DNA of 64,000 nucleotides from Myxococcota bacterium (lineage in GTDB: Bacteria > Myxococcota_A > UBA9160 > SZUA-336). Shown here in pieces: positions 9,036 through 63,911 of this stretch; positions within the stretch are counted from its first letter, which is position 1, and each line of letters starts with the position of its first letter. The position numbers were made by a program, and so were the translations under genes. The DNA is taken from contig CBDFGR010000002.1 in assembly GCA_965247115.1 (NCBI GenBank), positions 1,498,669-1,562,668 of the forward strand, in the 5' to 3' direction. A model generated the notes under the pieces. It had not been told where the DNA came from, did no database searches, and was given only the letters and a program-made list of their open reading frames with translations.

Positions 9036-10133
9036 TCAGCTCGGCGCGGCCCACGGATCGGGATCGAGGTCGAGGAAGCTCAGGGTCTCGGCCCCGAGCG
9101 CCGCGAGCGCCGCGTACAGGCGCTCGAGTCCCGGACGCTCCGTCGGGGCGTGTCCGGCATCGAGGAGACACATGCCTCGATCTTGGGCCGCTCGCGCAGC
9201 GTGGTGGCCCAGATCGCCCGTCACGACGGCGTCCGCGCCCGCCGCCGCGGCCAGGCTCAGCAGCTCAGAGCCCGAGCCGGGGATCACCGCGACCCGGTCG
9301 AGCACCCGGTCGGGGTCGCCGGCACGACGCAGCGTCTTCGTGTGTAGCTCCTCGGCCGCGCGCTGCGCCAGCCCCTGGAGCGTGGTCCCCGCGGCGGGTG
9401 TCCCGACTCGCCCGACCATTCCTGCGTTGCCATGGCGCTCGTAGACGTCGTAGGTAGGCTCCTCGTAGGGATGTGCAGCCACGAGCGCTCCCAGTGCCAG
9501 AGCTTCCTTGGATCGCGGCACCACGAACTCGAGCCGTACCTCGGGTTCCTCGTTCAGCCGTCCCTGCTTGCCCGTGCGGGGCTGGGTAGCAGCTCCGGCG
9601 AAGAAGGTCCCCACGCCCTCGGAACGGTAGGAGCAGCTCGAGTAGTTCCCGATCCGCCCCGCGCCCGCGGCGGAGACCGCCTGGAGCACCGACGGCGCGG
9701 CCTCCACGGGCAGAAAGGTGACGATCTTCAGGACATCTTGGCCGTACAGGGGGGCGAAGCCGGAGAGCTCGTCCAGGCCGAGTACCTCCGCCAGTGCGTC
9801 GGAGGTTCCTCCCTCGGCGACGTCGAAGTTCGTGTGGACCACGGCCAGCGCCGTGCCAAGGCGCGCCAGCCGCAACGTCCTGCCTTCCGGCGTCGCTCCA
9901 CTGAGCAGAGTGTTCGTGGACCGGAACAGCAACGGGTGGTAGCTGACGAGCAGGTCCACGGGACCTTGCTCCAGACGCGCGACGACCTCCTCGGTCACCT
10001 CGTGACACACTGCAACTCGTTCCACACGTGCAGAGGCATCTCCAAGCTGGAGGCCGACCGGATCCCAGGCCGCCGCCTTCTCAAACGGCGCACGCTGACC
10101 GAGCGAGGCGAGAAAGTCGGCTACCGTCCGCAC
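9036..10133 (-). CDS. Nif3-like dinuclear metal center protein (GTP cyclohydrolase 1 type 2 homolog)
   Basis: 365-aa ORF (GTG start); C-terminal AVIPGSGSELLSLAAAAGADAVVTGDLGHHAARAAQDRGMCLLDAGHAPTE is typical of Nif3/YqfO family. Confidence 0.75.
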   Translation of the reverse strand: MRTVADFLASLGQRAPFEKAAAWDPVGLQLGDASARVERVAVCHEVTEEVVARLEQGPVDLLVSYHPLLFRSTNTLLSGATPEGRTLRLARLGTALAVVHTNFDVAEGGTSDALAEVLGLDELSGFAPLYGQDVLKIVTFLPVEAAPSVLQAVSAAGAGRIGNYSSCSYRSEGVGTFFAGAATQPRTGKQGRLNEEPEVRLEFVVPRSKEALALGALVAAHPYEEPTYDVYERHGNAGMVGRVGTPAAGTTLQGLAQRAAEELHTKTLRRAGDPDRVLDRVAVIPGSGSELLSLAAAAGADAVVTGDLGHHAARAAQDRGMCLLDAGHAPTERPGLERLYAALAALGAETLSFLDLDPDPWAAPS

Positions 10134-10186
10134 ACGTCGGATGGTAGCGCCTTTGCCGGCGCTGCCGACTGAGGTACGATCCCGTG

Positions 10187-10405
10187 ATGCACATCTCGAT
10201 TACGTACTGCGGGGCCTGAAACTACCTCCCGCAGGCCACCAGTCTGGCGGCCACGATCAAGGCAGAAGTCGGCGTCGAGACCGAGTTGATTCGCGGCGGC
10301 AGCGGCGTCTTCGACGTAGAGGTCGACGGCCGCACGATCTACTCCAAATCCGAGACCGGCCGCTTCCCCGAGCCGGACGAGATCCTCCCGGAGCTCAAGG
10401 GGTAG
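10187..10405 (+). CDS. selenoprotein W-like (Rdx/SelW/SelT family) small redox protein with in-frame UGA (Sec) at 10217-10219
   Basis: Manual translation from ATG 10187: MHISITYCGA-U-NYLPQATSLAATIKAEVGVETELIRGGSGVFDVEVDGRTIYSKSETGRFPEPDEILPELKG*; CxxU motif and FDVEVDG...SK...GRFP signature; not in ORF track because of the TGA. Confidence 0.75.
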
Positions 10406-10411
10406 TGGGCC

Positions 10412-10500
10412 TTTTGGGACCCGGCCGCGGGCGTCCGCGGCCACCCACCTCCGCTCAGGCCAGGGGCCTTCGCTGCGCGCGCCGCTCTCGCAGCGCTTGC
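10412..10500 (+). repeat. GC-rich ~90-bp multi-hairpin repeat, copy A (REP/RPE/MITE-like family)
   Basis: TTTTGGGACCCGGCCGCGGGCGTCCGCGGCCACCCACCTCCGCTCAGGCC-AGG-GGCCTTCGCTGCGCGCGCCGCTCTCGCAGCGCTTGC, immediately after the selenoprotein stop; matches copies B-H. Confidence 0.85.
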
Positions 10501-10570
10501 GCGGGTGCTTGGTCGAGGACGGGGTCGGGAGATGTCGACAGGGATGGAGGCGCGGCCTAGGCTCCGTCGC

Positions 10571-10933
10571 ATGAGGCGTCGGCTTCTGGTTGTCACAACG
10601 GCCGCGATCCTCGGCGTGGGTTGTCTGGGGCCAACGCCGAATCCGGAAACTTGCAGGATCGAGATCGTCGGCGTCGAGAGCGCCGTCAACAACAACAGAG
10701 GCTTCGACATCTCGTACCGCGTGAAGGGGTACGCGGGAACACCAGGGGTCGTCTCACTCGTCGCGCAACGACACGACGGCGGCTACCTGTCGGGAAAGGG
10801 CGTCGACGTCGGCCCCGGAGCTTTCGTCGCAATCATCGAGCAAAAGCTCACCGGTCCCGCAACAGGCTACGTCGCCCTGCTCGAAGTCGCCGACAGCCGC
10901 TCCCGCGCCAACGCCAAACCACCAGAGGCCTAG
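10571..10933 (+). CDS. putative small secreted protein or lipoprotein
   Basis: Within ORF 10505..10933; MRRRLLVVTTAAILGVGC... resembles a signal peptide with lipobox-like LGVGC; bracketed by repeat copies A and B in inverted orientation. Start uncertain. Confidence 0.4.
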   Translation: MRRRLLVVTTAAILGVGCLGPTPNPETCRIEIVGVESAVNNNRGFDISYRVKGYAGTPGVVSLVAQRHDGGYLSGKGVDVGPGAFVAIIEQKLTGPATGYVALLEVADSRSRANAKPPEA

Positions 10934-11043: not shown

Positions 11044-12069
11044 TTACGAGACGGTCCAGCGGTCGCCGGCGAAGAGGAGGTCGGCGAGGCCTGCGTCGCC
11101 ATGCGCGAGCTCGGCCTGGGACTGCTCCTGCGTTTCACCGTCGAAGGTTGGCTCCTCCACGGCCCGCAGCACGCCGATCGGCGTGGGGAAGTCGGGCGCC
11201 TCGCAGCGGGCCAGCAACATGGACAACGTCGGGTCCCGATTCGTCTCGTCGTGCAGGACCTCCACGCCGTCGTCCTTGGCACCGACGTGACCAGCGTAGA
11301 GGCGCAGGTAGGTCGGGTTTAGCTTGAGCATACGATCGTGATCGTTGCCGTAGATGAGCGGCTGACCGTTCTCGAGCACGAGCAGGTGGTCGGACTTGAT
11401 CTTGCGGTCCTTGACCTCATCGAACACACCGTCGTTATAGACCGGGCAGTTCTGGTAGATCTCGAGGAAGGCAGAGCCTTTGTGCTCGGCCATCCGGCGA
11501 ATCATTTCCTGCAGGTGACGGGTCTCCGTGTCTACCGTCCGCGCGACGAAGGTCGCCTCGGCTCCCAGCGCCAGCGAGAGGGTGCGAAATGGCCGGGCCA
11601 CCGATCCGTTTGGCGACGACTTCGTCTTCATGCCGATCTCGGAGGTGGGCGAGAACTGACCCTTGGTCAGCCCGTAGACCTTGTTGTTGAACAGCAGGAT
11701 CTTCAGATCCACGTTGCGACGCAGCATGTGGATCAGGTGGTTTCCACCGATAGACAGCCCATCACCGTCGCCGGTCACCACCCACACGGACAGGTCGGGT
11801 CGTGCGATCTTCAGTCCGGTCGCGATGGCCGGCGCGCGCCCGTGAATCGTGTGAAAACCGAACGTGTCCATGTAGTACGGAAAGCGCGAGCTGCAGCCGA
11901 TCCCGGACACGAAGACGATGTTCTCGCGCGGGACGCCCAGCTCGGGCATGACCTTCTGCATCTGGGCGAGGATGGCGTAGTCGCCACAGCCCGGGCACCA
12001 GCGCACCGCCTCGTCCGGAATGAAGTCCTTCTTGGTCAGCTTCGGGGCATCTGCGGTCTGAATGCTCAT
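11044..12069 (-). CDS. korB: 2-oxoglutarate:ferredoxin oxidoreductase beta subunit
   Basis: 341 aa; WCPGCGDYAIL...GIGCSSRFPYYM...VVTGDGDGLSIGGNHLIHMLRRN, TPP-binding beta subunit signature; 4-bp overlap with korA. Confidence 0.85.
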   Translation of the reverse strand: MSIQTADAPKLTKKDFIPDEAVRWCPGCGDYAILAQMQKVMPELGVPRENIVFVSGIGCSSRFPYYMDTFGFHTIHGRAPAIATGLKIARPDLSVWVVTGDGDGLSIGGNHLIHMLRRNVDLKILLFNNKVYGLTKGQFSPTSEIGMKTKSSPNGSVARPFRTLSLALGAEATFVARTVDTETRHLQEMIRRMAEHKGSAFLEIYQNCPVYNDGVFDEVKDRKIKSDHLLVLENGQPLIYGNDHDRMLKLNPTYLRLYAGHVGAKDDGVEVLHDETNRDPTLSMLLARCEAPDFPTPIGVLRAVEEPTFDGETQEQSQAELAHGDAGLADLLFAGDRWTVS

Positions 12070-13949
12070 AGCCTCGCCTCGTGTAGGGCCCGTGTGGGAA
12101 GCAGCGGGCGAACAGCGTCGATGATCTCCTGAACCTTGAAGGGTTGGCCCTGCACCTTGTTCAGGCCCTTTGCGTCGACCAGGAAGCGGTGCCGCAGGAT
12201 CGAAAGCAGCTGGCCCATGTTGAGCTCCGCCACGATCACGTTGCGGTAGCGGGACAGGAGCTCGCCCACGTTCGACTGCATGGGGTTCAGGTAGCGCAGG
12301 TGGAGATGCCCGACGTCCGCGCCCTCGCTGCGCAGCGCCGCGGCCGCCTGGTGCAGCGAGCCGAAGGTGCCACCCCAGCCGACCAGGAGTACGTCACCGT
12401 GCTCCGGACCGTCGATCTCCGCCAGCGGAATCCGGTGCGCGATGCGCTCGAGCTTGGCGTGTCGGACGCGGTTCATGTGCTCGTGGTTCAGCGGGTCGTA
12501 CGAGACGTTTCCCGTCACGTCCTCTTTCTCCAGCCCTCCGATCCGGTGCTCGAGGCCCGGGGTGCCCGGCACCGCCCACGGGCGAACGAAATCGTCGTTG
12601 CGCAGGAACGGGTGGAATCCCTCGGGATCCACGCAGTTCTCGGAGCGGATCGGCTCGAGCTGCTCGGGGTCAGGCAAGAGCCAGGGCTCCGAGCCGTTCG
12701 CGAGCGACGCGTCGGACAGGTAGACGACCGGCGTCATGAACTCGATGGCAAAGCGGACCGCCTGGATCATGACGTCGAAACAGTCGGCAGGCGTCGCGGG
12801 AGCCACCACGGCCACAGGGCAGTCGCTGTTCCGACCGACCAGCGCCTGCATCAGATCGCCCTGCTCGGGCTTGGTCGGCATCCCGGTCGAGGGTCCGGCC
12901 CGCTGCACGTCGACGATCAGGAGCGGGAGCTCCGTCACGACCGCGAGCGCGATCCCCTCCTGCTTGAGCGTGAACCCGGGCCCGGAGGTTCCAGTCGCCC
13001 CCAGGACACCTCCAAACGAGGCGCCGATCGCTGCCGTCACGGCCGCGATCTCGTCCTCGGCCTGGAACGCGGTCACTCCGTAGCGGCCGTATCCCGAGAG
13101 GTGGTGCAGGATGTCGGAGGCGGGGGTGATCGGATAGCTCGCGTAGAAGATCTTGCGGCCCGCGAGCTGTCCCGCGGCCACGATGCCGAGCGCGGCGGCC
13201 TCGTTCCCCGTCACGTGGCGGTAGGGTCCCGGCTCGAGCTTGGCCGGCGGGACCCGATAGGTCGCGTCCACGAGCTCCGCCGTCTCACCAAAGTGGAAGC
13301 CCGTCAGGAAGACCTTGGCGTTCGACTCGGCGATCTCCGGTCGACGAGCGAACTTGGCTCGAATGGCCTCGACCTCGGGCTCGGGATCGCGGTTGTAGAG
13401 CCAGAACACGACGCCCAACGCAAACATATTTCGCGTCCGCTGCGTGTCCTTGGTCGATAGCCCACTGCCCTTGAGGGCTGCCGTCACGTGCTTGGAGAAG
13501 TCGATCTCGATCACGCGGTAGTCGGCGAGGCTCCCGTCCTCGAGCGGGCTTTTCTCGTAGCCTGCCAGCTCGAGGTTGCGCTTCTTGAACGACGAGTTGT
13601 CGACCAGAAGCATACCGCCGGGAATCAGGTCTGCGATGTTCGTCCTGAGCGCCGCGGGATTCATGGCCACGAGCACGTCGGGGGCGTCGCCAGCAGTAAA
13701 TATTTCGTTGCTGGAGAACTGCAGCTGGAAGCCGGAGACGCCAGCGAGACTCCCCGCGGGCGCGCGGATCTCCGCGGGGAAGTCCGGGAACGTGGCGATG
13801 TCATTGCCGAACAACGCCGCCGAGCGCGTGAACTCCGTCCCCGTGAGCTGCATCCCGTCACCCGAGTCGCCCACGAAGCGGACTACTACGGAGTCGAGCT
13901 CCTGGATGCGCGGATCGCCGACTTCGTCCGGGCCGTTCGGTTTTGTCAT
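12066..13949 (-). CDS. korA: 2-oxoglutarate:ferredoxin oxidoreductase alpha subunit
   Basis: 627 aa; RFVGDSGDGMQLTGTEF...FPDFPAEIRAPAG... typical of KorA/2-oxoacid:ferredoxin oxidoreductase alpha. Confidence 0.85.
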   Translation of the reverse strand: MTKPNGPDEVGDPRIQELDSVVVRFVGDSGDGMQLTGTEFTRSAALFGNDIATFPDFPAEIRAPAGSLAGVSGFQLQFSSNEIFTAGDAPDVLVAMNPAALRTNIADLIPGGMLLVDNSSFKKRNLELAGYEKSPLEDGSLADYRVIEIDFSKHVTAALKGSGLSTKDTQRTRNMFALGVVFWLYNRDPEPEVEAIRAKFARRPEIAESNAKVFLTGFHFGETAELVDATYRVPPAKLEPGPYRHVTGNEAAALGIVAAGQLAGRKIFYASYPITPASDILHHLSGYGRYGVTAFQAEDEIAAVTAAIGASFGGVLGATGTSGPGFTLKQEGIALAVVTELPLLIVDVQRAGPSTGMPTKPEQGDLMQALVGRNSDCPVAVVAPATPADCFDVMIQAVRFAIEFMTPVVYLSDASLANGSEPWLLPDPEQLEPIRSENCVDPEGFHPFLRNDDFVRPWAVPGTPGLEHRIGGLEKEDVTGNVSYDPLNHEHMNRVRHAKLERIAHRIPLAEIDGPEHGDVLLVGWGGTFGSLHQAAAALRSEGADVGHLHLRYLNPMQSNVGELLSRYRNVIVAELNMGQLLSILRHRFLVDAKGLNKVQGQPFKVQEIIDAVRPLLPTRALHEARL

Positions 13950-20168: not shown

Positions 20169-20272
20169 GTCACCCGTCCCGCGACTGGAGCCCGAGACGA
20201 AGGGTGGGGTCCGCGCCCCGACCTCCCGGTCGGAGGCGTCTTCCGAGCGCTACAGATTTCCCGAGGAACGAC

Positions 20273-20872
20273 CTAGGCAGGAGAGGCCCGCGTCCCACCT
20301 GGCACCGCCGAGGGATCCAGAAGCCCGTGGCGTCGCCAGCCGACTCTCAGGAGCCAGGTGTGCGCGTTGGCGACTGGTCGAGGCCGCTCTACACGCTCGA
20401 GTCGAGCCGTACCTCTCTTCCACCCATCAAACCACCGGCCCGAGGAGGCGGGATCCAGAGCCGTGCGCGCAGTTCGGCGATGCCGGGCCGCGTTGAGCAG
20501 TACGTACCGGATTGCATTCCGGACTTCGTGCGGCGTCTTCAGAACCCGCATGTGGTAGCGATCCGCCAGCAGCAAACCTCGCCACCCGAACGCCCGCCGC
20601 ATCGCCCAGATCATCCTTCTGCTCAAGGACTTCATCCCACGACCGAGGGCGTGCTGATCCTTCGCCTCAACGATCAGGTGTGCGTGATCCCGCAAGAGAG
20701 CGTAGTGCACCAGCCGAAACTCGCCCCTGTCGCACCCACGAGTGGCGAGCGTATCCTCGAACGCTCGCACAAAGGCCGGAGCCCGTAGCGACGGAACTCC
20801 CTCGCGTACTCGCAGCGTCACGTGGCACGGATGTCTCGACGGCAGCTTTGGCCGACTCCGATGCTGAACCAG
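20273..20872 (-). CDS. Y1 (HUH) transposase, IS200/IS605-like / REP-associated tyrosine transposase-like; start codon unresolved
   Basis: ...HVTLRVREGVPSLR...EFRLVHYALLRDHAHLIVEAKD...LLADRYHMRVLKTPHEVRNAIRYVLLNAARH... then DPASSGRWFDGW tail; HuH motif (H-A-H) and catalytic RY. No ATG/GTG/TTG found just upstream of the conserved core. Confidence 0.55.
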   Translation of the reverse strand: MVQHRSRPKLPSRHPCHVTLRVREGVPSLRAPAFVRAFEDTLATRGCDRGEFRLVHYALLRDHAHLIVEAKDQHALGRGMKSLSRRMIWAMRRAFGWRGLLLADRYHMRVLKTPHEVRNAIRYVLLNAARHRRTARTALDPASSGRWFDGWKRGTARLERVERPRPVANAHTWLLRVGWRRHGLLDPSAVPGGTRASPA

Positions 20873-21024
20873 GGGGTTTGGGCCAGGCTTGCGCCCAGCC
20901 CCCGTGCGCCGCCCGCCATGACGCGCGGGAGGCCGTAGATCAAGGGAGAGCTGTCTGTTTGATTGCGTCACTCTATCACCGATAAGTGTAGAATAGGGCG
21001 TTCTAAGAACGGGCCTTCGGCGAG

Positions 21025-21570
21025 TTTGGCCTGCCCCTGCGTGATCTTGACGGACAACGGGTCCCCTTTCGTGGCTCCGCGGGCTCACCGGCTCAGTGTG
21101 TGATGGAATGAGCCTCGGGATCCGCCCCGTTCGCATCGAGCCTGCCCACCCGGAGCAGAACGGGGCTCACGAGCGCATGCACCGGACCCTCAAGGCCGAG
21201 ACCACGCATCCGCCTGCCGGAAACCGCGGCGTCCAGCAACGCCGCTTCAATCGCTTCCGGCAGATCTACAACGAGGAGCGGCCACACGAAGCGCTCGGTC
21301 AGGTCCCTCCTGCAAAGGTGTGTGGCGCCCTTCGGCTCGAGCCTTTCCCGAGCGGATCCCTCTTCCGGAGTATCCCGAACACTAGACAACAGAGTGTTAC
21401 CCATGTTGCCGGTCTAACCGTTACCCATGTCCCGGGTTGAACAAAGATCGCCGCGCTAGAAGGCCCGCTTTATCGGGCTCGACGAGACCGAGGACGGGAT
21501 CTGGTCGGTCTACTTCAGAGACGTCCTGCTCGGTCGCTACCACGAGGAAGAACGGAGGATCTTCTGGTAA
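21025..21570 (+). pseudogene. DDE transposase (rve integrase-core) C-terminal remnant, frameshifted
   Basis: Three frames carry consecutive pieces: VILTDNGSPFVA; MSLGIRPVRIEPAHPEQNGAHERMHRTLKAE...YNEERPHEALGQVPPAKV; ...RFIGLDETEDGIWSVYFRDVLLGRYHEEERRIFW*. N-terminal half absent. Confidence 0.55.
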
Positions 21571-23782: not shown

Positions 23783-25198
23783 TCAAAAAAGACCTGGCAG
23801 CGGTCCGGGGTCGCTGAGCTCGTTGGCCGAGCAGACCTTGTTCCTGCCGAGCGCCTTGCCCAGGTACATCGCCTTGTCGGCGAGATCGAGGATCATCTCG
23901 GACGTTTCGCCGTTACCGGGGAAGCTGGCGACACCGATGCTGAGCGTCAGGCTGAGCTGCAGCCCTCGTTCTGCTCCGAACCGAGCGTCCTCCACGCTCC
24001 GGCGTATGCGCTCCGCGACCTCTAGCGCCTTGTCCTGGTCTGTGTCCGCCAGCAGGATCGTGAATTCGTCGCCGCCGTAGCGCCCGACGGTATCGATCGC
24101 CCGAATCTGCTTGTGCAGGAGCTGGCCGAGCTCCATCAGCACGCGCGAGCCCACCAGGTGTCCGAACTGGTCATTCACGTTCTTGAAGCGGTCCAGGTCC
24201 AGGAACAGCACGCTCAGCTGGCTGTGCGCGCGGGTGGCCCGGCTGACCTCTCGATCGAGGGCGGAGAGCAGGTAGCGTGCGTTGTAGAGCCCGGTCACGT
24301 CATCCACGAACGCGCGCTCGCGCGCCTGGACGAAGCGGTCTGCGTTGATAAGGGCCAGCTCGGACTGGGTGGCCACGAGCTCCCCGCGACGGGTCTCATC
24401 GGGCGTAAAGGCCCGGCCCTCCGGGAGCACCCAGATGCCCCCGGCAACGTGACCGTCGAGACACACGGGTAGACTCAGGATCTCCTCCCCCTCGGCCAAG
24501 CAGCCAAGCTGAGTCAGGAGCGCCTGGCTCGACGCGTCACATCCGCCCTCGGACTCGAGCGCGCCGAGATCGAACAGCTTGTCGCGCTGGATGGAATCCC
24601 GCAGCTCGGGGACCCCTTCCACGGGAAAGCCCCTGAGGTGAACACCCTCCGAGGGACGGGCTTGCTCACCGTACGCGAGTCTCCCGATGGCCATGGAACG
24701 GCTCACGACTCGGAGGACGATGTCCAGAGCCAGGGGCAGCACGTCGGATGTCTCGAGGCAGGAGGCGAGGCTTCGTGTGGCCTCGAAAGCCTGGATGCAG
24801 CCACGCAGGGCTTCGTTCTCCGAGAGGAGATGTCGGCGCAGCAAGGTGCGCTTGACGCAGTAGACGATCTCTGGCGCGGTGACGGGCTTGCGCAGGAAGT
24901 CCGCAGCGCCCAGCCGCATGGCCTGGAGAGCGCTTTCCAGCGAGGCGTAGCCCGTCAGGACCACCACTTCGGTCGACGGCCAGTCCCGCCGCACCTGCTC
25001 CATCAGCTCGAAGCCGTCCATCTCGCGCATGGAGAGGTCCGTCAGGAGCAGCTCGACCGCGCCATTGCGACCCAGCCATTCCAGGGCTTCCATCCCGGAG
25101 GTCGCGAGGTGTACTCGGAAGCCCTCCTGCGCAAGGGCGTCCCGCGTCATTTCGCGAATCAGTAGATCATCGTCGACGACCAGAACTCGCCTGCTCAC
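23783..25198 (-). CDS. response regulator with receiver domain and GGDEF diguanylate cyclase domain
   Basis: N-terminal VLVVDDDLLIREM...LTDLSMREMDG receiver; C-terminal DDVTGLYNARYL...RYGGDEFTILL GGDEF signature. Confidence 0.85.
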   Translation of the reverse strand: MSRRVLVVDDDLLIREMTRDALAQEGFRVHLATSGMEALEWLGRNGAVELLLTDLSMREMDGFELMEQVRRDWPSTEVVVLTGYASLESALQAMRLGAADFLRKPVTAPEIVYCVKRTLLRRHLLSENEALRGCIQAFEATRSLASCLETSDVLPLALDIVLRVVSRSMAIGRLAYGEQARPSEGVHLRGFPVEGVPELRDSIQRDKLFDLGALESEGGCDASSQALLTQLGCLAEGEEILSLPVCLDGHVAGGIWVLPEGRAFTPDETRRGELVATQSELALINADRFVQARERAFVDDVTGLYNARYLLSALDREVSRATRAHSQLSVLFLDLDRFKNVNDQFGHLVGSRVLMELGQLLHKQIRAIDTVGRYGGDEFTILLADTDQDKALEVAERIRRSVEDARFGAERGLQLSLTLSIGVASFPGNGETSEMILDLADKAMYLGKALGRNKVCSANELSDPGPLPGLF

Positions 25199-58982: not shown

Positions 58983-59602
58983 TCCCGCGCCTCTGCTACA
59001 TCACAGATGCCGAGCGAGGGACCGGCGGGCGCCCGCTGGCACAAGTGCTGAAGGACTCGGCCCGCGGCGGAGTGGAGCTCGTGGTGCTGAGAGAGCCCCA
59101 GCTAGAGGGCAGCGAATGGGAGGCTCTCTTGCAGCAGATCGCCCCGCTGCGCGAGGAGGGGCTCAGAGTGGTCGCCAGTCGCCGCTTGGACGTGGCTAGA
59201 GCCTGCGAGCTGGATGGCGTCCACCTGGCGGCCGACGCGATCAGCGTAGCCGAGGCTCGCGCCTGGCTGGGGCCGGGGGCCCTGATCGGATATTCGGCCC
59301 ACTCGGGCAGCGAGGCTCGCGACGCTGCCGCCGCCGGCGCAAGCTATGTGACACTTTCGCCGATCTACCAGACAGCGTCCAAACCCGGGACTGCCGGTCG
59401 GGGCTGCGCCTGGCTGGCGCAAGAGCTGCGGGAGGTGGAACTTCCCGTACTCGCACTCGGCGGCCTGACACCGGAACGCACACCGGAGGTGCTGGAGGCC
59501 GGAGCCTGGGGCGTCGCGGCAGTGTCCGCGATCGGCGCGGCTCCGGACGTCAGGGCGGCCGTCGGTGAATTTCAGAACGCACTCAAGGAGAACGCACCAT
59601 GA
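58979..59602 (+). CDS. thiE: thiamine-phosphate synthase
   Basis: 207 aa, GTG start; ...LCYITD...VLALGGL... TMP-synthase pattern; follows thiG. Confidence 0.85.
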
Positions 59603-61053
59603 CTCGCGCCTCACTCCTCGTACCGTTCGTCGCGAGCTTGGTCGGCTGCACAAGCCTGCCGAGCGCGCTCGCGAACGATCCGCTGGAGGCCCTGCAGACC
59701 CGGGTCATCGACGTCAACCACGCGGCGAGCCCCTCCGTCGTCCACATCGAGGCGGCGCTCAAGGTCAACAACCGGCGCAAGCTGGTGACAGGCTCCGGCT
59801 TCATTACCCATCCCGAGGGCATCGTGGTGACAAACGAGCACGTGGTCGAGCGGGCGCAGAAGGTCACCGTCCTGGTTCCTGGACGCGAGGGTCGCTATGC
59901 GGCGCAGGTCGTGGGAACGGACAAGCAGACGGACCTCGCGGTCCTGCGCATCGAGCCGCGCGAGGGGGAGCCGCCTTTCGCCGCAGCCGCACTCGGTGAC
60001 TCCGACCAGCTGCGCGTTGGGGAGTGGGTGATCGCGATCGGAAATCCCTACGGGCTGGAAGGGACGGTCTCGCTTGGGATCGTGTCGGCCAAGGGCCGGG
60101 ATCTGAAAGAAGGGAATCTGCTGAACGACTTCATCCAGACGGACGCCATGATCGATCACGGCTCGTCGGGCGGACCTTTGCTCGATCTGGACGGGCTGGT
60201 CGTAGGCGTGAATTCCCGCGGCCAGGGTCGCGGCATCGGCTTCACCATCCCCATCAACACGGCCAAGCAGGTCGCGGCCGATCTGCTGGGCGAGGGGCGC
60301 ATCGCGCGCGGCTATCTCGGCGTGTCCATTCAGCCGCTCGATCGCGAGCTCGCCCGCTACTGGGGCATCGAGCAGATCCACGGCGTGATCGTCGGCGCGG
60401 TGACGCACCAATCGCCTGCCCAGAATGCCGGGCTCCACGTGGGCGACATCATCACGCGCTTCGACGGCGAGGAGATCCGCGCGGAGAAGGACGAGGACAT
60501 GGGCCAGTTCCAGCGCCTGATCGCGGCCATGCAGGCGGGGGAGGAGGTCGCGATCGACGTATTGCGCGGTGGTGAGCACAAGACCGTTACCGCGACGCTG
60601 AGCGCCCAGCCCAAGGTCGTACCCGATGAGGAAGAGACCGAGCTCGGCTTCACCGCCCAGGAGGTGACCGAGATCCTCTATCGATCCCACCGTCTCGAGC
60701 AACGCTCCGGGGTGCTCTGCTCCTTCGTCGAGCGCGGCTCGGAGGCGGCTGAGGCGGGCATGGCACCTGGAGACCTGATCGTGGAGGTCGAGGGGGTCGA
60801 GATCCGCGACATCGAGGAGTTCCGGCAGGCGATGAGGGACCTGCGTCCTGGCACTCCGTTCCTGATCCGGGCGCTGCGTGGCGACAACATGCGGTACATG
60901 CTGGTCGTGCCGCGTTCCGGCGACTTCCGGGCCGCAAGCGCGAGACCCGAGCGGCAGCTTGCGCGCAAGATCGATGTGCGAGCCAGAGACGAGGGCGGGG
61001 AGGGAACAGATCTTGCGCAGTCATCCTCTGAAGGCAGGCGGATCACCAAATAG
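59599..61053 (+). CDS. HtrA/DegP family periplasmic serine protease with PDZ domains (paralog 1)
   Basis: 484 aa; signal/lipoprotein-like N-terminus; ...VVTNEHVV..., ...DLAVL..., ...GSSGGPL catalytic triad context; PDZ region. Confidence 0.9.
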   Translation: MTRASLLVPFVASLVGCTSLPSALANDPLEALQTRVIDVNHAASPSVVHIEAALKVNNRRKLVTGSGFITHPEGIVVTNEHVVERAQKVTVLVPGREGRYAAQVVGTDKQTDLAVLRIEPREGEPPFAAAALGDSDQLRVGEWVIAIGNPYGLEGTVSLGIVSAKGRDLKEGNLLNDFIQTDAMIDHGSSGGPLLDLDGLVVGVNSRGQGRGIGFTIPINTAKQVAADLLGEGRIARGYLGVSIQPLDRELARYWGIEQIHGVIVGAVTHQSPAQNAGLHVGDIITRFDGEEIRAEKDEDMGQFQRLIAAMQAGEEVAIDVLRGGEHKTVTATLSAQPKVVPDEEETELGFTAQEVTEILYRSHRLEQRSGVLCSFVERGSEAAEAGMAPGDLIVEVEGVEIRDIEEFRQAMRDLRPGTPFLIRALRGDNMRYMLVVPRSGDFRAASARPERQLARKIDVRARDEGGEGTDLAQSSSEGRRITK

Positions 61054-61087
61054 GGCGGCGGAGCCCGCCGTCAAAGGGACTGGCCCG

Positions 61088-62443
61088 ATGAAGAGCACCC
61101 TACTCGCTTGGGTCGTCCTTCCGATCCTCGCGATCGGGAGCACGGCTGTAGCCGACGTCGACACGCGCCGCACCCCCATTGTGAAGGCCGTAGAGCGCGT
61201 TGGCCCAGCCACAGTGAACATCACCTCGACCCAGGAGGTGCGCCAGCGGGCCAATCCCTTCTTCAGCTCGGACCCGTTCATCGAGAAGTTCTTCGGCACC
61301 TTCCTCGATCCCCGGCGCCGAACGGTCAGCAGCCTGGGTACCGGCCTCATCATCGGGCCAGAGGGCCAGGTGCTGACGAACGAGCACGTCCTGGCCGGCG
61401 CGACACAGATCCACGTCGTGCTCGCCGACGGGCGCGAGTTCGACGCCGAGCTCATCGGCGCGGACCCGGAGACGGACCTCGCGGTCGTGCAGATCAGCGC
61501 GGACGAGCCGCTGCCCTTCGTGGAGCTCGGGAGCTCGGAGGATCTGCTGATTGGCGAGACCGTGATCGCGATCGGGAACCCTTTCGGCCTGCACCACACG
61601 GTAACAACCGGCGTGCTCTCAGCGGAGAACCGCTCGATCCGCGCGGGCGACCGCGAGTACCACGGGTTCCTGCAGACCGACGCAAGTATCAACCCAGGGA
61701 ACTCGGGCGGACCGCTGCTCAACATCGACGGCGACGTGATCGCCATCAATACCGCCATCTTTCGCGAGGCGGAGGGAATCGGCTTTGCCATCCCGATAGA
61801 CAGGGCGAAGCGGGTCGTCGACGACCTCTTGACCCACGGCGAGGTCATTCCGGTCTGGCTGGGCCTTCGCCTGCAAGACCTCACCCAGAGCCTCCGCGAC
61901 GCGTTCACTGCCCGCGCGACGGGCGGCGTCCTGATTACGCACGTCTTCGCTGACTCCCCCGCGCAGCGCGCGAAGCTGCGCCGTGGCGACATCCTGCTCG
62001 AGCTGGATGGGACGAAGATCGGCACCGCGCGCAACTACTTCGAGGTCCTGGCCGGGCTGACCGATGGGGACCGCGCCGAGCTCGTGATCGACCGCGGGGG
62101 AGATCAACATCGGCAGGAGACGCACGCTGAGATCTTTCCGGAGAGCAGGGCCGACGAGCTGGCTCAGATCCTTCTCGGTGTGGAAGTTGCGGAGATAGAC
62201 AGTGAGCCGGGGGCCCGCCGCCGGGGCAACCGCGGCCTCGTAGTGCGGCGTGTCATCCCCCGTAGCTCAGCGGATTACAAGAGGATTCGACCAGGCGATG
62301 TGATCCTGAAGATCGACCAGGACCCGGTCGAGGATCGTGTTGCCTTTCGCAAGGCGATTACTAAGCTTCGCGGACGTGGACAGGTGCTCCTTCTCGTCCA
62401 GCGCGAGCGCTATGGCTACTACGTGACCCTGGATCTGTCCTAG
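61088..62443 (+). CDS. HtrA/DegP family serine protease (paralog 2)
   Basis: ATG at 61088; MKSTLLAWVVLPILAIG signal peptide; ...VLTNEHVL..., ...DLAVV..., ...GNSGGPL... Confidence 0.9.
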   Translation: MKSTLLAWVVLPILAIGSTAVADVDTRRTPIVKAVERVGPATVNITSTQEVRQRANPFFSSDPFIEKFFGTFLDPRRRTVSSLGTGLIIGPEGQVLTNEHVLAGATQIHVVLADGREFDAELIGADPETDLAVVQISADEPLPFVELGSSEDLLIGETVIAIGNPFGLHHTVTTGVLSAENRSIRAGDREYHGFLQTDASINPGNSGGPLLNIDGDVIAINTAIFREAEGIGFAIPIDRAKRVVDDLLTHGEVIPVWLGLRLQDLTQSLRDAFTARATGGVLITHVFADSPAQRAKLRRGDILLELDGTKIGTARNYFEVLAGLTDGDRAELVIDRGGDQHRQETHAEIFPESRADELAQILLGVEVAEIDSEPGARRRGNRGLVVRRVIPRSSADYKRIRPGDVILKIDQDPVEDRVAFRKAITKLRGRGQVLLLVQRERYGYYVTLDLS

Positions 62444-62462: not shown

Positions 62463-63911
62463 ATGAGACACGGCAAGGTTCTGGCGGCGATCGGCTTCGC
62501 GTTTGGGGGATTGCTGATCCTCACCCAACCGCTGGGCCTGGAGCTGCGGCTGAGCGAAAAGAGTGCCCACGCCCGCGTCGCGGGCGACGCCTTCTGGACG
62601 GACGGACAACCCGGCCCCACGCTCGGCAGGCCCGACTCGGTGGCGGATCTGGCCGAGGCCCTGTCTCCCGCGGTCGTGAACATCAAAACGGAGCGGAAGA
62701 GCAGCGCTCGCAGTCCCGACATCTTCGAGGAGTTCTTCGGGCGCCGCCGTCCTCGGGGAGGACCGCCTCCACAGTTCCGCACCGACGCGACGGGCTCGGG
62801 CTTCGTAATCTCCGAGGACGGCTACATCGTGACGAACAACCACGTGGTGGAGGGAGCCGACAAGATCGTTGTGGTGCTGGACAACGGAGAGGAGCTCGAT
62901 GCGGAGATCGTCGGTCGTGACCCGGAGACGGACCTGGCGTTGCTCAAGATAGACGCCGATCACGAGCTCAACGTCGCACCGCTAGGTGACTCCGACGCCA
63001 TCCGCGTCGGCGATTGGCTCATGGCGATCGGCAATCCCTTCGGACTCGATCACACGGTTACCCTCGGCATCCTGTCCGCGCGCGGCCGCAACATCAACGC
63101 AGGAAGGTACGACGACTTCCTGCAGACCGACGCGAGCATAAATCCTGGCAACTCGGGTGGACCGCTGTTCGACATGCGCGGGCGCGTGATCGGGATCAAC
63201 ACGGCAATCAACCAGAACGGTCAGGGCATCGGCTTTGCCATCCCGATCAACATGGCGAAGGATCTGCTCCCTCAGCTGCGCGCCGTGGGCGCGGTGACGC
63301 GAGGCTGGCTCGGTGTGCAGATTCAGCGCGTGAACCCGGCCCTGGCGAAGAGCTTCGGGCTCGATGAGCCGCGCGGCGCCCTCATCTCCATGGTCTTCGA
63401 GGACGGGCCGGCGGACAAGGCCCGGATCAAGCGCGGCGACGTGATCGTCGAGTTCGACGGCTCCGCGATCGACGAGTTCAACGACCTTCCGAGAATCGTG
63501 GCGAATACCGCTCCCGAGAGCGAGGTCTCGGTCAAGGTGCTGCGCGACGGTAAGGCCAAGACCCTCAAGGCAAGGCTCGGCAAGCTGGAGGAGGACCAGG
63601 TCCAGCTGGCATCGACCGAGCGCCACGATTCCGAGTGGGGCTTCGAGGTGGAGGCCCTGACCAGCGACATCGTGGAGAGGCTCGATCTGGACAAGGACCT
63701 GTCCGGCGTCCTGGTAACGGGCGTCGATCCCGAGTCAGGTGCCTACGATGAGGGGCTGCGCCAGGGCGACATCATTCTCGAGGTGAACCGCACCGAGGTC
63801 TCCCGGCCCGACCAGGTGACCCGGGCGCTCGAGAAGGAAGACGAGCACGCCGTGCTTCTCGTGCAGCGAGGCGAGGCGACGCTGTATCTCGCGATCGAGC
63901 GGGAGCGGTAG
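62463..63911 (+). CDS. HtrA/DegP family serine protease with two PDZ domains (paralog 3)
   Basis: 482 aa; ...IVTNNHVV..., ...DLALL..., ...GNSGGPL...; two PDZ-like C-terminal regions. Confidence 0.9.
   Translation: MRHGKVLAAIGFAFGGLLILTQPLGLELRLSEKSAHARVAGDAFWTDGQPGPTLGRPDSVADLAEALSPAVVNIKTERKSSARSPDIFEEFFGRRRPRGGPPPQFRTDATGSGFVISEDGYIVTNNHVVEGADKIVVVLDNGEELDAEIVGRDPETDLALLKIDADHELNVAPLGDSDAIRVGDWLMAIGNPFGLDHTVTLGILSARGRNINAGRYDDFLQTDASINPGNSGGPLFDMRGRVIGINTAINQNGQGIGFAIPINMAKDLLPQLRAVGAVTRGWLGVQIQRVNPALAKSFGLDEPRGALISMVFEDGPADKARIKRGDVIVEFDGSAIDEFNDLPRIVANTAPESEVSVKVLRDGKAKTLKARLGKLEEDQVQLASTERHDSEWGFEVEALTSDIVERLDLDKDLSGVLVTGVDPESGAYDEGLRQGDIILEVNRTEVSRPDQVTRALEKEDEHAVLLVQRGEATLYLAIERER

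Follow-up and report, generated by a model that had tools for sequence, protein, structure and literature searches.

The stretch from 10187 to 10405 on the forward strand of the window (the whole stretch of analysed DNA, 64 kb in length) is a genuine 72-codon SelW-like gene of an uncultured member of the Myxococcota. The UGA within its frame is very probably a codon for selenocysteine (Sec), decoded with the aid of a conserved RNA hairpin located just 3' of it. Because of this in-frame UGA, the gene is missed by gene finders. Taken as a whole, a functional SelW-like selenoprotein gene with SelB/SECIS-directed insertion of Sec is the best explanation for this locus, and we hold it with high confidence. 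The features of the locus are the following:

10171–10174, plus strand: possible ribosome-binding site GAGG, 12 nt 5' of the ATG; a weak candidate, proposed from the sequence only
10187–10405, plus strand: coding sequence of the SelW-like (Rdx family) selenoprotein, 72 codons plus the TAG stop, defined by translation, HMMs, GC content at third positions (GC3) and orthologues
10208–10219, plus strand: redox motif Cys-Gly-Ala-Sec (CxxU), read from the sequence, with a predicted position between strand beta-1 and helix alpha-1
10217–10219, plus strand: in-frame UGA, the probable selenocysteine codon; TGA conserved, aligned with Cys, coding signal on both sides
10234–10252, plus strand: bacterial SECIS hairpin with 8 stem positions and one A·C mismatch, within the codons for Q-A-T-S-L-A-A
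10242–10244, plus strand: apical loop GUC with an A-U closing pair; its G and U are the presumed SelB contact
10423–10442, plus strand: perfect 8-bp GC hairpin, a possible terminator without T-run, 18 nt after the stop

Reading frame and conservation of the UGA codon

The translation of positions 10187–10405 on the plus strand is MHISITYCGA*NYLPQATSLAATIKAEVGVETELIRGGSGVFDVEVDGRTIYSKSETGRFPEPDEILPELKG*, where the internal TGA occupies 10217–10219 and the terminal stop is TAG (10403–10405). It is identical to the frame that an earlier, sequence-only reading of this DNA had proposed, with 72 codons and the TGA inside a C-G-A-U motif. The GC3 in this frame is 0.89 overall, with 0.90 in the ten codons 5' of the TGA and 0.90 in the 61 codons 3' of it, while the other two plus-strand frames over the same stretch present third-position GC of 0.47 and 0.58. 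The frame therefore shows the coding signature of this genome, whose GC content is 67%, on either side of the TGA. The ATG at 10187 agrees with the starts of the orthologues, a Met being found at that codon in 64 of 81 sequences.

The list of open reading frames of at least 40 amino acids has no entry in this frame across the gene, in agreement with the earlier statement that the gene is absent from the six-frame track. In other frames, spurious ORFs longer than 100 codons run across it at 10121–10444 on the minus strand and 10141–10560 on the plus strand; with third-position GC of 0.62 and 0.57, respectively, they do not look like coding sequence. An annotation that simply takes the longest ORF could choose one of them over the real SelW-like gene.

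Of the 32 confident genes in the window, 17 end with TGA; UGA thus acts as a normal stop under a standard code, and reassignment of the UGA codon was rejected on these grounds. A scan of the window for in-frame TGA codons gave nine sites, and a redox motif together with a clean signal occurs only at 10217. The scan, which looked for an in-frame TGA with coding-like GC3 on both sides, gave no further selenoprotein gene in the window.

Relatives were collected by a scan of GTDB with one genome per species, in which 465 were confirmed and the best 80 were kept. These 80 come from MAGs or genomes of Myxococcota, 'Deltaproteobacteria' and Planctomycetota including Phycisphaerae, as well as from Acidobacteriota (Vicinamibacteria, Thermoanaerobaculia and Terriglobia), Binatia, Gammaproteobacteria, Spirochaetes, Eisenbacteria and Desulfobacterales. 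Their orthologues align without gaps, the protein is conserved both 5' and 3' of the TGA, and the TGA is present at the same codon in 80 of 80. With the window sequence included, Cys8 is invariant and codon 11 is TGA in 81 of 81. Orthologues with a Cys codon beside a lone nonsense copy here, the contrary outcome named by the sequence-only reading, are thus not what the best 80 of the 465 relatives present. The protein database holds nine relatives: one is a full-length Cys form, and the other eight are fragments of 43–62 residues that start just past the CxxU, which is the mark of gene callers restarting after an in-frame stop.

The closest relative, L001, is a Myxococcota MAG of a sister species, syntenic with the window at 88–89% nucleotide identity. 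Between the two copies of the gene, which diverge by about 11% at the nucleotide level, 18 codons differ synonymously and 4 nonsynonymously. The segment 5' of the UGA has 4 synonymous and no nonsynonymous differences, and the hairpin has none at all. The SelW-like gene is under purifying selection on either side of the UGA.

This substitution pattern bears on the reading of the gene as a relic, according to which this species has lost the Sec machinery, translation stops at the UGA after 10 codons, and what is left is a recently inactivated gene. Selenoprotein losses, those of SelW-like genes included, are documented in deltaproteobacteria (PMC1794560, Table 4), and the 64-kb window contains neither a Sec machinery gene nor a tRNA-Sec, both of which are consistent with such a loss. 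A dead gene of 219 nt, however, would not give the pattern seen against L001, with changes only synonymous 5' of the UGA and an unchanged hairpin, unless the loss were very recent; a second strain of the species also retains the TGA and the hairpin. We consider the relic very unlikely, and return to a functional selenoprotein gene.

A coding-region hairpin 3' of the UGA

The hairpin has the form GGCCACCA-GUC-UGGCGGCC and starts 14 nt after the UGA, where the sequence-only reading had placed one at 10234–10252, about 15 nt past this codon. Its stem contains 7 standard pairs in 8 positions (3 pairs, the A·C mismatch and 4 pairs), and its minimum free energy (MFE) is -9.9 kcal/mol. Between the end of the UGA (10219) and the first loop nucleotide (10242) the spacing is 22 nt, which is identical in all the relatives aligned, since the alignment is ungapped.

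The published bSECIS model, that of bSECISearch, requires an apical loop of 3–9 nt on an upper stem of 4–16 bp, a G at loop position one or two, typically as N1-G-[G/U]-N-N2, a distance of 16–37 nt from the UGA to the apical loop, and an MFE of -7.5 kcal/mol or lower (PMC13188914, Fig. 2A). The comparison with bSECIS models, recommended beforehand as a check together with folding of the region, came out in favour of the hairpin, which satisfies all four constraints of this model (PMC13188914, Fig. 2A). Folding of the window sequence alone was uninformative: single-sequence folds of 10217–10275 and 10205–10300 are no more stable than shuffled sequences (z = 0.53 and 0.26, respectively). Because the single-sequence fold equals the shuffles, the significance of the hairpin comes from comparative analysis only.

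That analysis used an ungapped alignment (A2) of 81 sequences, which extends 12 nt to the 5' side and 57 nt to the 3' side of the UGA. Nearly every one of these sequences folds into this hairpin at identical codons, and 72 of the 80 relatives (the best 80 of 465) have an MFE at or below -7.5 kcal/mol (median -9.9). All 81 sequences have the loop G, with U or G as the next base. The loop contexts among the best 80 of the 465 relatives are AGUCU (33), AGUUU (30), GGUCU (11), AGGCU (3), AGGUU (2) and AGUGU (1), the first being that of the window copy. The pair that is an A·C mismatch in the window stem is likewise A·C in 34 of 81 sequences and is G-C in 43.

In the stem, formed by columns 30–37 with 41–48 of A2, 89.8% of the cells are standard pairs, and in 34 cells both partners are changed. 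Covariation scores 0.223, a value that none of 500 column shuffles attains (0.096 ± 0.008); this is a comparison to be read in view of the relatedness of the sequences and of the constraint that the peptide A-x-S-L-A-A also places on the region, although the decisive pair, 33–45, is synonymous. This pair is formed in 81 of 81 sequences by five pair types (C-G in 63, U-A in 7, G-U in 5, G-C in 4 and U-G in 2), and both of its bases are third positions of Ala codons, to which the protein is indifferent. Pair 36–42 shows two compensated changes, G-C and A-U. When the 3' arm was slid by 1–3 columns as a control, the covariation was at most 0.083 and 22–50% of the cells were paired. RNAalifold, unaided by a given structure, recovers the core of the hairpin.

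The codons themselves also reflect the structure. Third-position entropy is 0.19–0.33 bits at codons 18–20, which form the apex, and 1.2–1.9 in the neighbouring codons; the Ser codon of the loop is AGU, a rare codon, in 76 of 81 sequences. The lack of a conserved structure 3' of the UGA, foreseen as a possible argument against the selenoprotein, is therefore not the case, since a conserved and covarying hairpin was found. Rfam gave no relevant match, either for the whole window at gathering thresholds or for 10100–10500 at permissive E-values. An alternative helix of 8 bp (10207–10214 with 10227–10234), which would hold the UGA in its loop, was rejected as incidental, with 53.7% of its cells paired against 54.5% in shuffles.

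These data also decide on chance or artefact as the origin of the signal, by which a sequencing error or a nonsense mutation would have hit a Cys-type Rdx gene and the hairpin would be an accident of GC-rich Ala codons. GC-rich DNA easily forms hairpins, and the single-sequence fold is indeed no better than shuffles. Against it, the TGA is found in 80 of 80 independent assemblies (the best 80 of 465) from several phyla and in the second strain, the compensatory changes fall at synonymous sites, and the pairing is specific to its register, as the slid controls make clear beside the 89.8% of the true stem. The probability left to chance or artefact is minimal, and the conservation of the TGA together with the covariation effectively refutes it. 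The selenoprotein reading proposed earlier is supported by the conserved UGA, the covarying hairpin and the family membership described below.

Protein family, proposed mechanism and genomic surroundings

For HMM scoring, the residue at the UGA was written as Cys. The SelW-like peptide matches the Pfam family Rdx (PF10262, formerly pfam05169) with E = 3.8e-18 and 65.9 bits against a cut-off of 22.6, over profile positions 2–71 of 74. The NCBI HMMs, which name SelW-like proteins, also recognize it: TIGR02174 'CXXU_selWTH' of NCBIfam gives 55.9 bits (cut-off 34.2), and the equivalog NF041051 'SelT/SelW/SelH family (seleno)protein' gives 88.6 bits, barely over its cut-off of 88. Sequence matches in the PDB are 2LJK, 2FA8, 3DEX, 2OJL, 2OKA and 2OBK, the best being 2LJK (MIEN1) with E = 2.5e-9. 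The CxxU aligns with the CxxC of the PDB homologues, including 2LJK and 2FA8.

The fold was examined by proxy, on the natural full-length Cys form P0001 from the protein database, which is 67% identical to the window protein and whose CGRC puts a Cys at the position of the UGA. The AlphaFold model of P0001 has a pLDDT of 91.2 and the order beta1 (3–8), CxxC, alpha1 (14–28), beta2, beta3, beta4 and alpha2. In Foldseek, this model matches the 'selenoprotein W-related' crystal structures 2FA8, 3DEX, 2OJL and 2P0G with TM values of 0.90–0.93; below these bacterial structures the list includes MIEN1, mouse SelW and thioredoxins. By this model, the SelW-like protein is predicted to have a thioredoxin-like beta-alpha-beta-beta-beta-alpha fold. 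The curated HMM cut-offs, the PDB sequence matches and the predicted fold of P0001 confirm that the window protein belongs to the Rdx / SelW-SelT-SelH family. The SelW-like assignment of the sequence-only reading, for which an alignment had been advised, is borne out by the three HMM cut-offs passed and by the aligned PDB homologues.

By analogy with what is known of the family, the following mechanism can be proposed. Translation would start at the ATG at 10187, and the mRNA hairpin at 10234–10252, through binding of SelB to its loop, would recruit SelB·GTP·Sec-tRNA(Sec) to the ribosome paused at the UGA (10217–10219). Sec would then be inserted as residue 11 in place of termination, and translation would run on to the TAG at 10403. 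The 72-residue product would take a thioredoxin-like fold (beta1, CxxU, alpha1, beta2, beta3, beta4, alpha2), in which Cys8 and Sec11 may be linked reversibly as a selenenylsulfide, passing reducing equivalents to and from a putative thiol partner.

The machinery for such insertion is absent from the window, as the sequence-only reading had noted for selA, selB, selD and tRNA-Sec. Neither tblastn with the E. coli proteins nor Pfam scans covering about 50 likely genes detected SelA, SelB or SelD in the 64-kb window, and a search for tRNA genes in the same 64 kb gave none. Among the relatives, the orthologue is located about 1 kb from selB, with selA about 3 kb away beyond it, in L042, a 'Desulfurellales' MAG (L042 3408–7965); it is within 7 kb of selA in L032, a Phycisphaerae MAG (L032 16979–18331), and 3.6 kb from a tRNA-SeC with anticodon UCA in L076, a Planctomycetales MAG (L076 13836–13929). 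Along with the purifying selection seen against L001, these three cases give indirect support to Sec machinery elsewhere in the genome of the window.

This proximity weighs on the possibility that the UGA is read through without Sec, by a near-cognate tRNA (Trp or Cys) or under a reassigned code, giving a full-length protein free of selenium. The full-length product is clearly under selection, which such read-through would equally explain. But the presence of Sec machinery genes beside the orthologue in L042, L032 and L076, the use of TGA as a stop under the standard code by the window genes counted above, the covarying hairpin with its SelB-type G[U/G] loop at canonical spacing, and the alignment of the UGA with the redox Cys of Cys-form homologues all stand against it. 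We regard selenium-free read-through as extremely unlikely, and SelB-directed insertion of Sec as the preferred reading.

The SelW-like gene is divergently transcribed from a NIF3-family gene (9036–10133, minus strand). Just 3' of it there is a small gene with its ATG at 10571 (10571–10933, plus strand), whose product starts with MRRRLLVVTTAAILGVGC, resembling a lipoprotein signal peptide with a lipobox; this gene has no Pfam match and is conserved only in close Myxococcota relatives (77% in L001, 45% in L066 and 38% in L023). Further on are the convergent 2-oxoacid:ferredoxin oxidoreductase subunits korB-korA (11044–13949, minus strand), the korB-like ORF being 11044–12069. The order NIF3, SelW-like gene, lipoprotein gene and korB-korA is common only to the three Myxococcota loci L001, L023 and L066; with the gene order confined to these, neither a functional partner nor a function can be deduced from it. 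The comparison of neighbourhoods found no conserved neighbour of the SelW-like locus that hints at a partner.

A scan of 9900–10700 for consensus promoters and terminators found nothing. The hairpin after the stop codon has the form GGCCGCGG-gcgt-CCGCGGCC, and the fold of 10403–10460 has -28.0 kcal/mol; it is retained in the strain contig L087 and absent from the sister species L001. The genes covered by the Pfam scans are housekeeping ones, among them several aminoacyl-tRNA synthetases, argG, argF and hslUV. A DnaK-like gene, dprA, ligA, trmD-rplS, thiG/thiE and two HtrA-type proteases are also present.

The same species occurs in long-read metagenome assemblies of ENA, for example ERZ25071132 ctg819925 (1.18 Mb), with 98.6–99.4% identity to the window. 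The strain copy of the SelW-like gene in the ENA contig differs by 1 nt (I66T), and its TGA and hairpin are intact. The public annotation of the contig has no gene in the 522 nt that separate NIF3 from the lipoprotein gene (L087 9422–9944, approximately 10011–10533 of the window), which confirms that the SelW-like gene is invisible to standard gene calling. A 341-aa TPP_enzyme_C gene is called in a same-species contig at the position that matches the korB-like ORF 11044–12069.

Other regions of the window differ between strains. The segment at about 20173–21442 is strain-variable, being about 94% identical in L083, L084 and L086 and mostly missing in L085, with flanks about 99% identical between strains; the ORF 20273–21136 (minus strand) has no Pfam match. 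A response-regulator/GGDEF gene at 23783–25198 (minus strand) is intact as a 471-aa ORF in the window and with 455 aa in L085, and was called in two pieces (375 + 70 aa) in L083/L084/L086 11314–12680; the split reflects either a frameshift polymorphism or an error of long-read assembly. The two HtrA/DegP-type serine protease genes, each with Trypsin_2 and two PDZ domains, are close together on the plus strand (59599–61053 and 62463–63911). The best ORF between them, 61021–62034 on the minus strand, has an odd composition (GC1 0.46, GC2 0.67) and no Pfam match.

Relation to known selenoproteins and significance

No known prokaryotic selenoprotein family is more abundant than the SelW-like proteins with CxxU and a bSECIS (PMC2398784, PMC1088965), which number 48 genes in the Sargasso Sea and 427 Sec against 56 Cys forms in GOS (PMC1088965, PMC2398784). 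Deltaproteobacteria are among their documented hosts, and earlier work has described the SECIS within their coding region (PMC1088965, PMC2398784, PMC1794560); their redox role is a predicted one (PMC1088965). The window gene resembles them in HMM family, in its N-terminal CxxU and small size, in having, directly after the in-frame UGA, a SECIS hairpin within the coding region whose small apical loop contains a G, and in that Sec forms outnumber Cys forms. There is no essential difference, apart from the window copy being from an uncultured Myxococcota and uncalled in the public contigs. The hairpin likewise agrees with the bSECIS model (PMC13188914), as a coding-region hairpin with a loop of 3 nt, G then U, 22 nt from the UGA and at -9.9 kcal/mol.

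The Cys-type SelW-related structures (2FA8 Atu0228, 3DEX SAV_2001, 2OJL, 2P0G, 2OKA and 2OBK) have the redox motif at the same place. They match the window protein with sequence E-values of 2.5e-7 to 3.5e-3 and the P0001 model with a TM of about 0.9 and an rmsd of 1.0–1.8 A. On the other hand, they carry CxxC and have about 100 residues as deposited, whereas the window protein has CxxU and 72 residues.

The SECIS of E. coli fdhF is another reference, with its loop G/U at nucleotides 23/24, counted from the U of the UGA, and a bulged U17. By this numbering, the loop G/U of the window hairpin is at 26/27, one codon further, and the window hairpin presents the A·C mismatch instead of a bulged U like U17.

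Eukaryotic selenoprotein W and MIEN1 (2NPB and 2LJK) share with the window protein the Rdx family, a CxxU/CxxC after beta-1 and the thioredoxin-like fold, and the eukaryotic SelW 2NPB is structurally further, with a TM of 0.64 to the P0001 model. Eukaryotic SelW depends on a SECIS in the 3'-UTR, with SBP2 and eEFSec; unlike it, the window gene has a coding-region hairpin of the SelB type.

Since all the testable features of the family are present, the gene is an unannotated instance of an already known kind. It is a real but ordinary gene, and its family and mechanism are already well described. Knowledge of selenoproteins is unchanged by it, with a mild novelty only in the uniformity of the SECIS across distant phyla. 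One nearly invariant SECIS, G-GCN-NCC-AGU-YUG-GCN-GCC, might serve the SelW-like subfamily, always at 22 nt from the UGA, although we think this rather doubtful. It is an equally tentative suggestion that this uniform element is embedded in the peptide A-x-S-L-A-A, and we see it as somewhat unlikely that it is common to Myxococcota, Planctomycetota, Acidobacteriota, Binatia, Gammaproteobacteria, Spirochaetota and others. If true, the SelB proteins of very distant phyla would read one minimal hairpin. The common statement is that the bacterial SECIS elements of different genes and taxa show little mutual resemblance, and a uniform SECIS would contradict it. Such an element could also be used as a SECIS tag that is portable and independent of phylum, and as a covariance model by which genes that are systematically uncalled could be recovered.

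The practical value of the finding is that a true gene is dropped by standard gene callers, as are the N-terminal parts, active site included, of eight of the nine relatives in the protein database. The locus also offers a clean, comparatively validated case of a SECIS inside a coding region, where the same seven codons are under constraint from the RNA structure and from the peptide. For the organism, the finding indicates the use of selenocysteine by an uncultured Myxococcota lineage.
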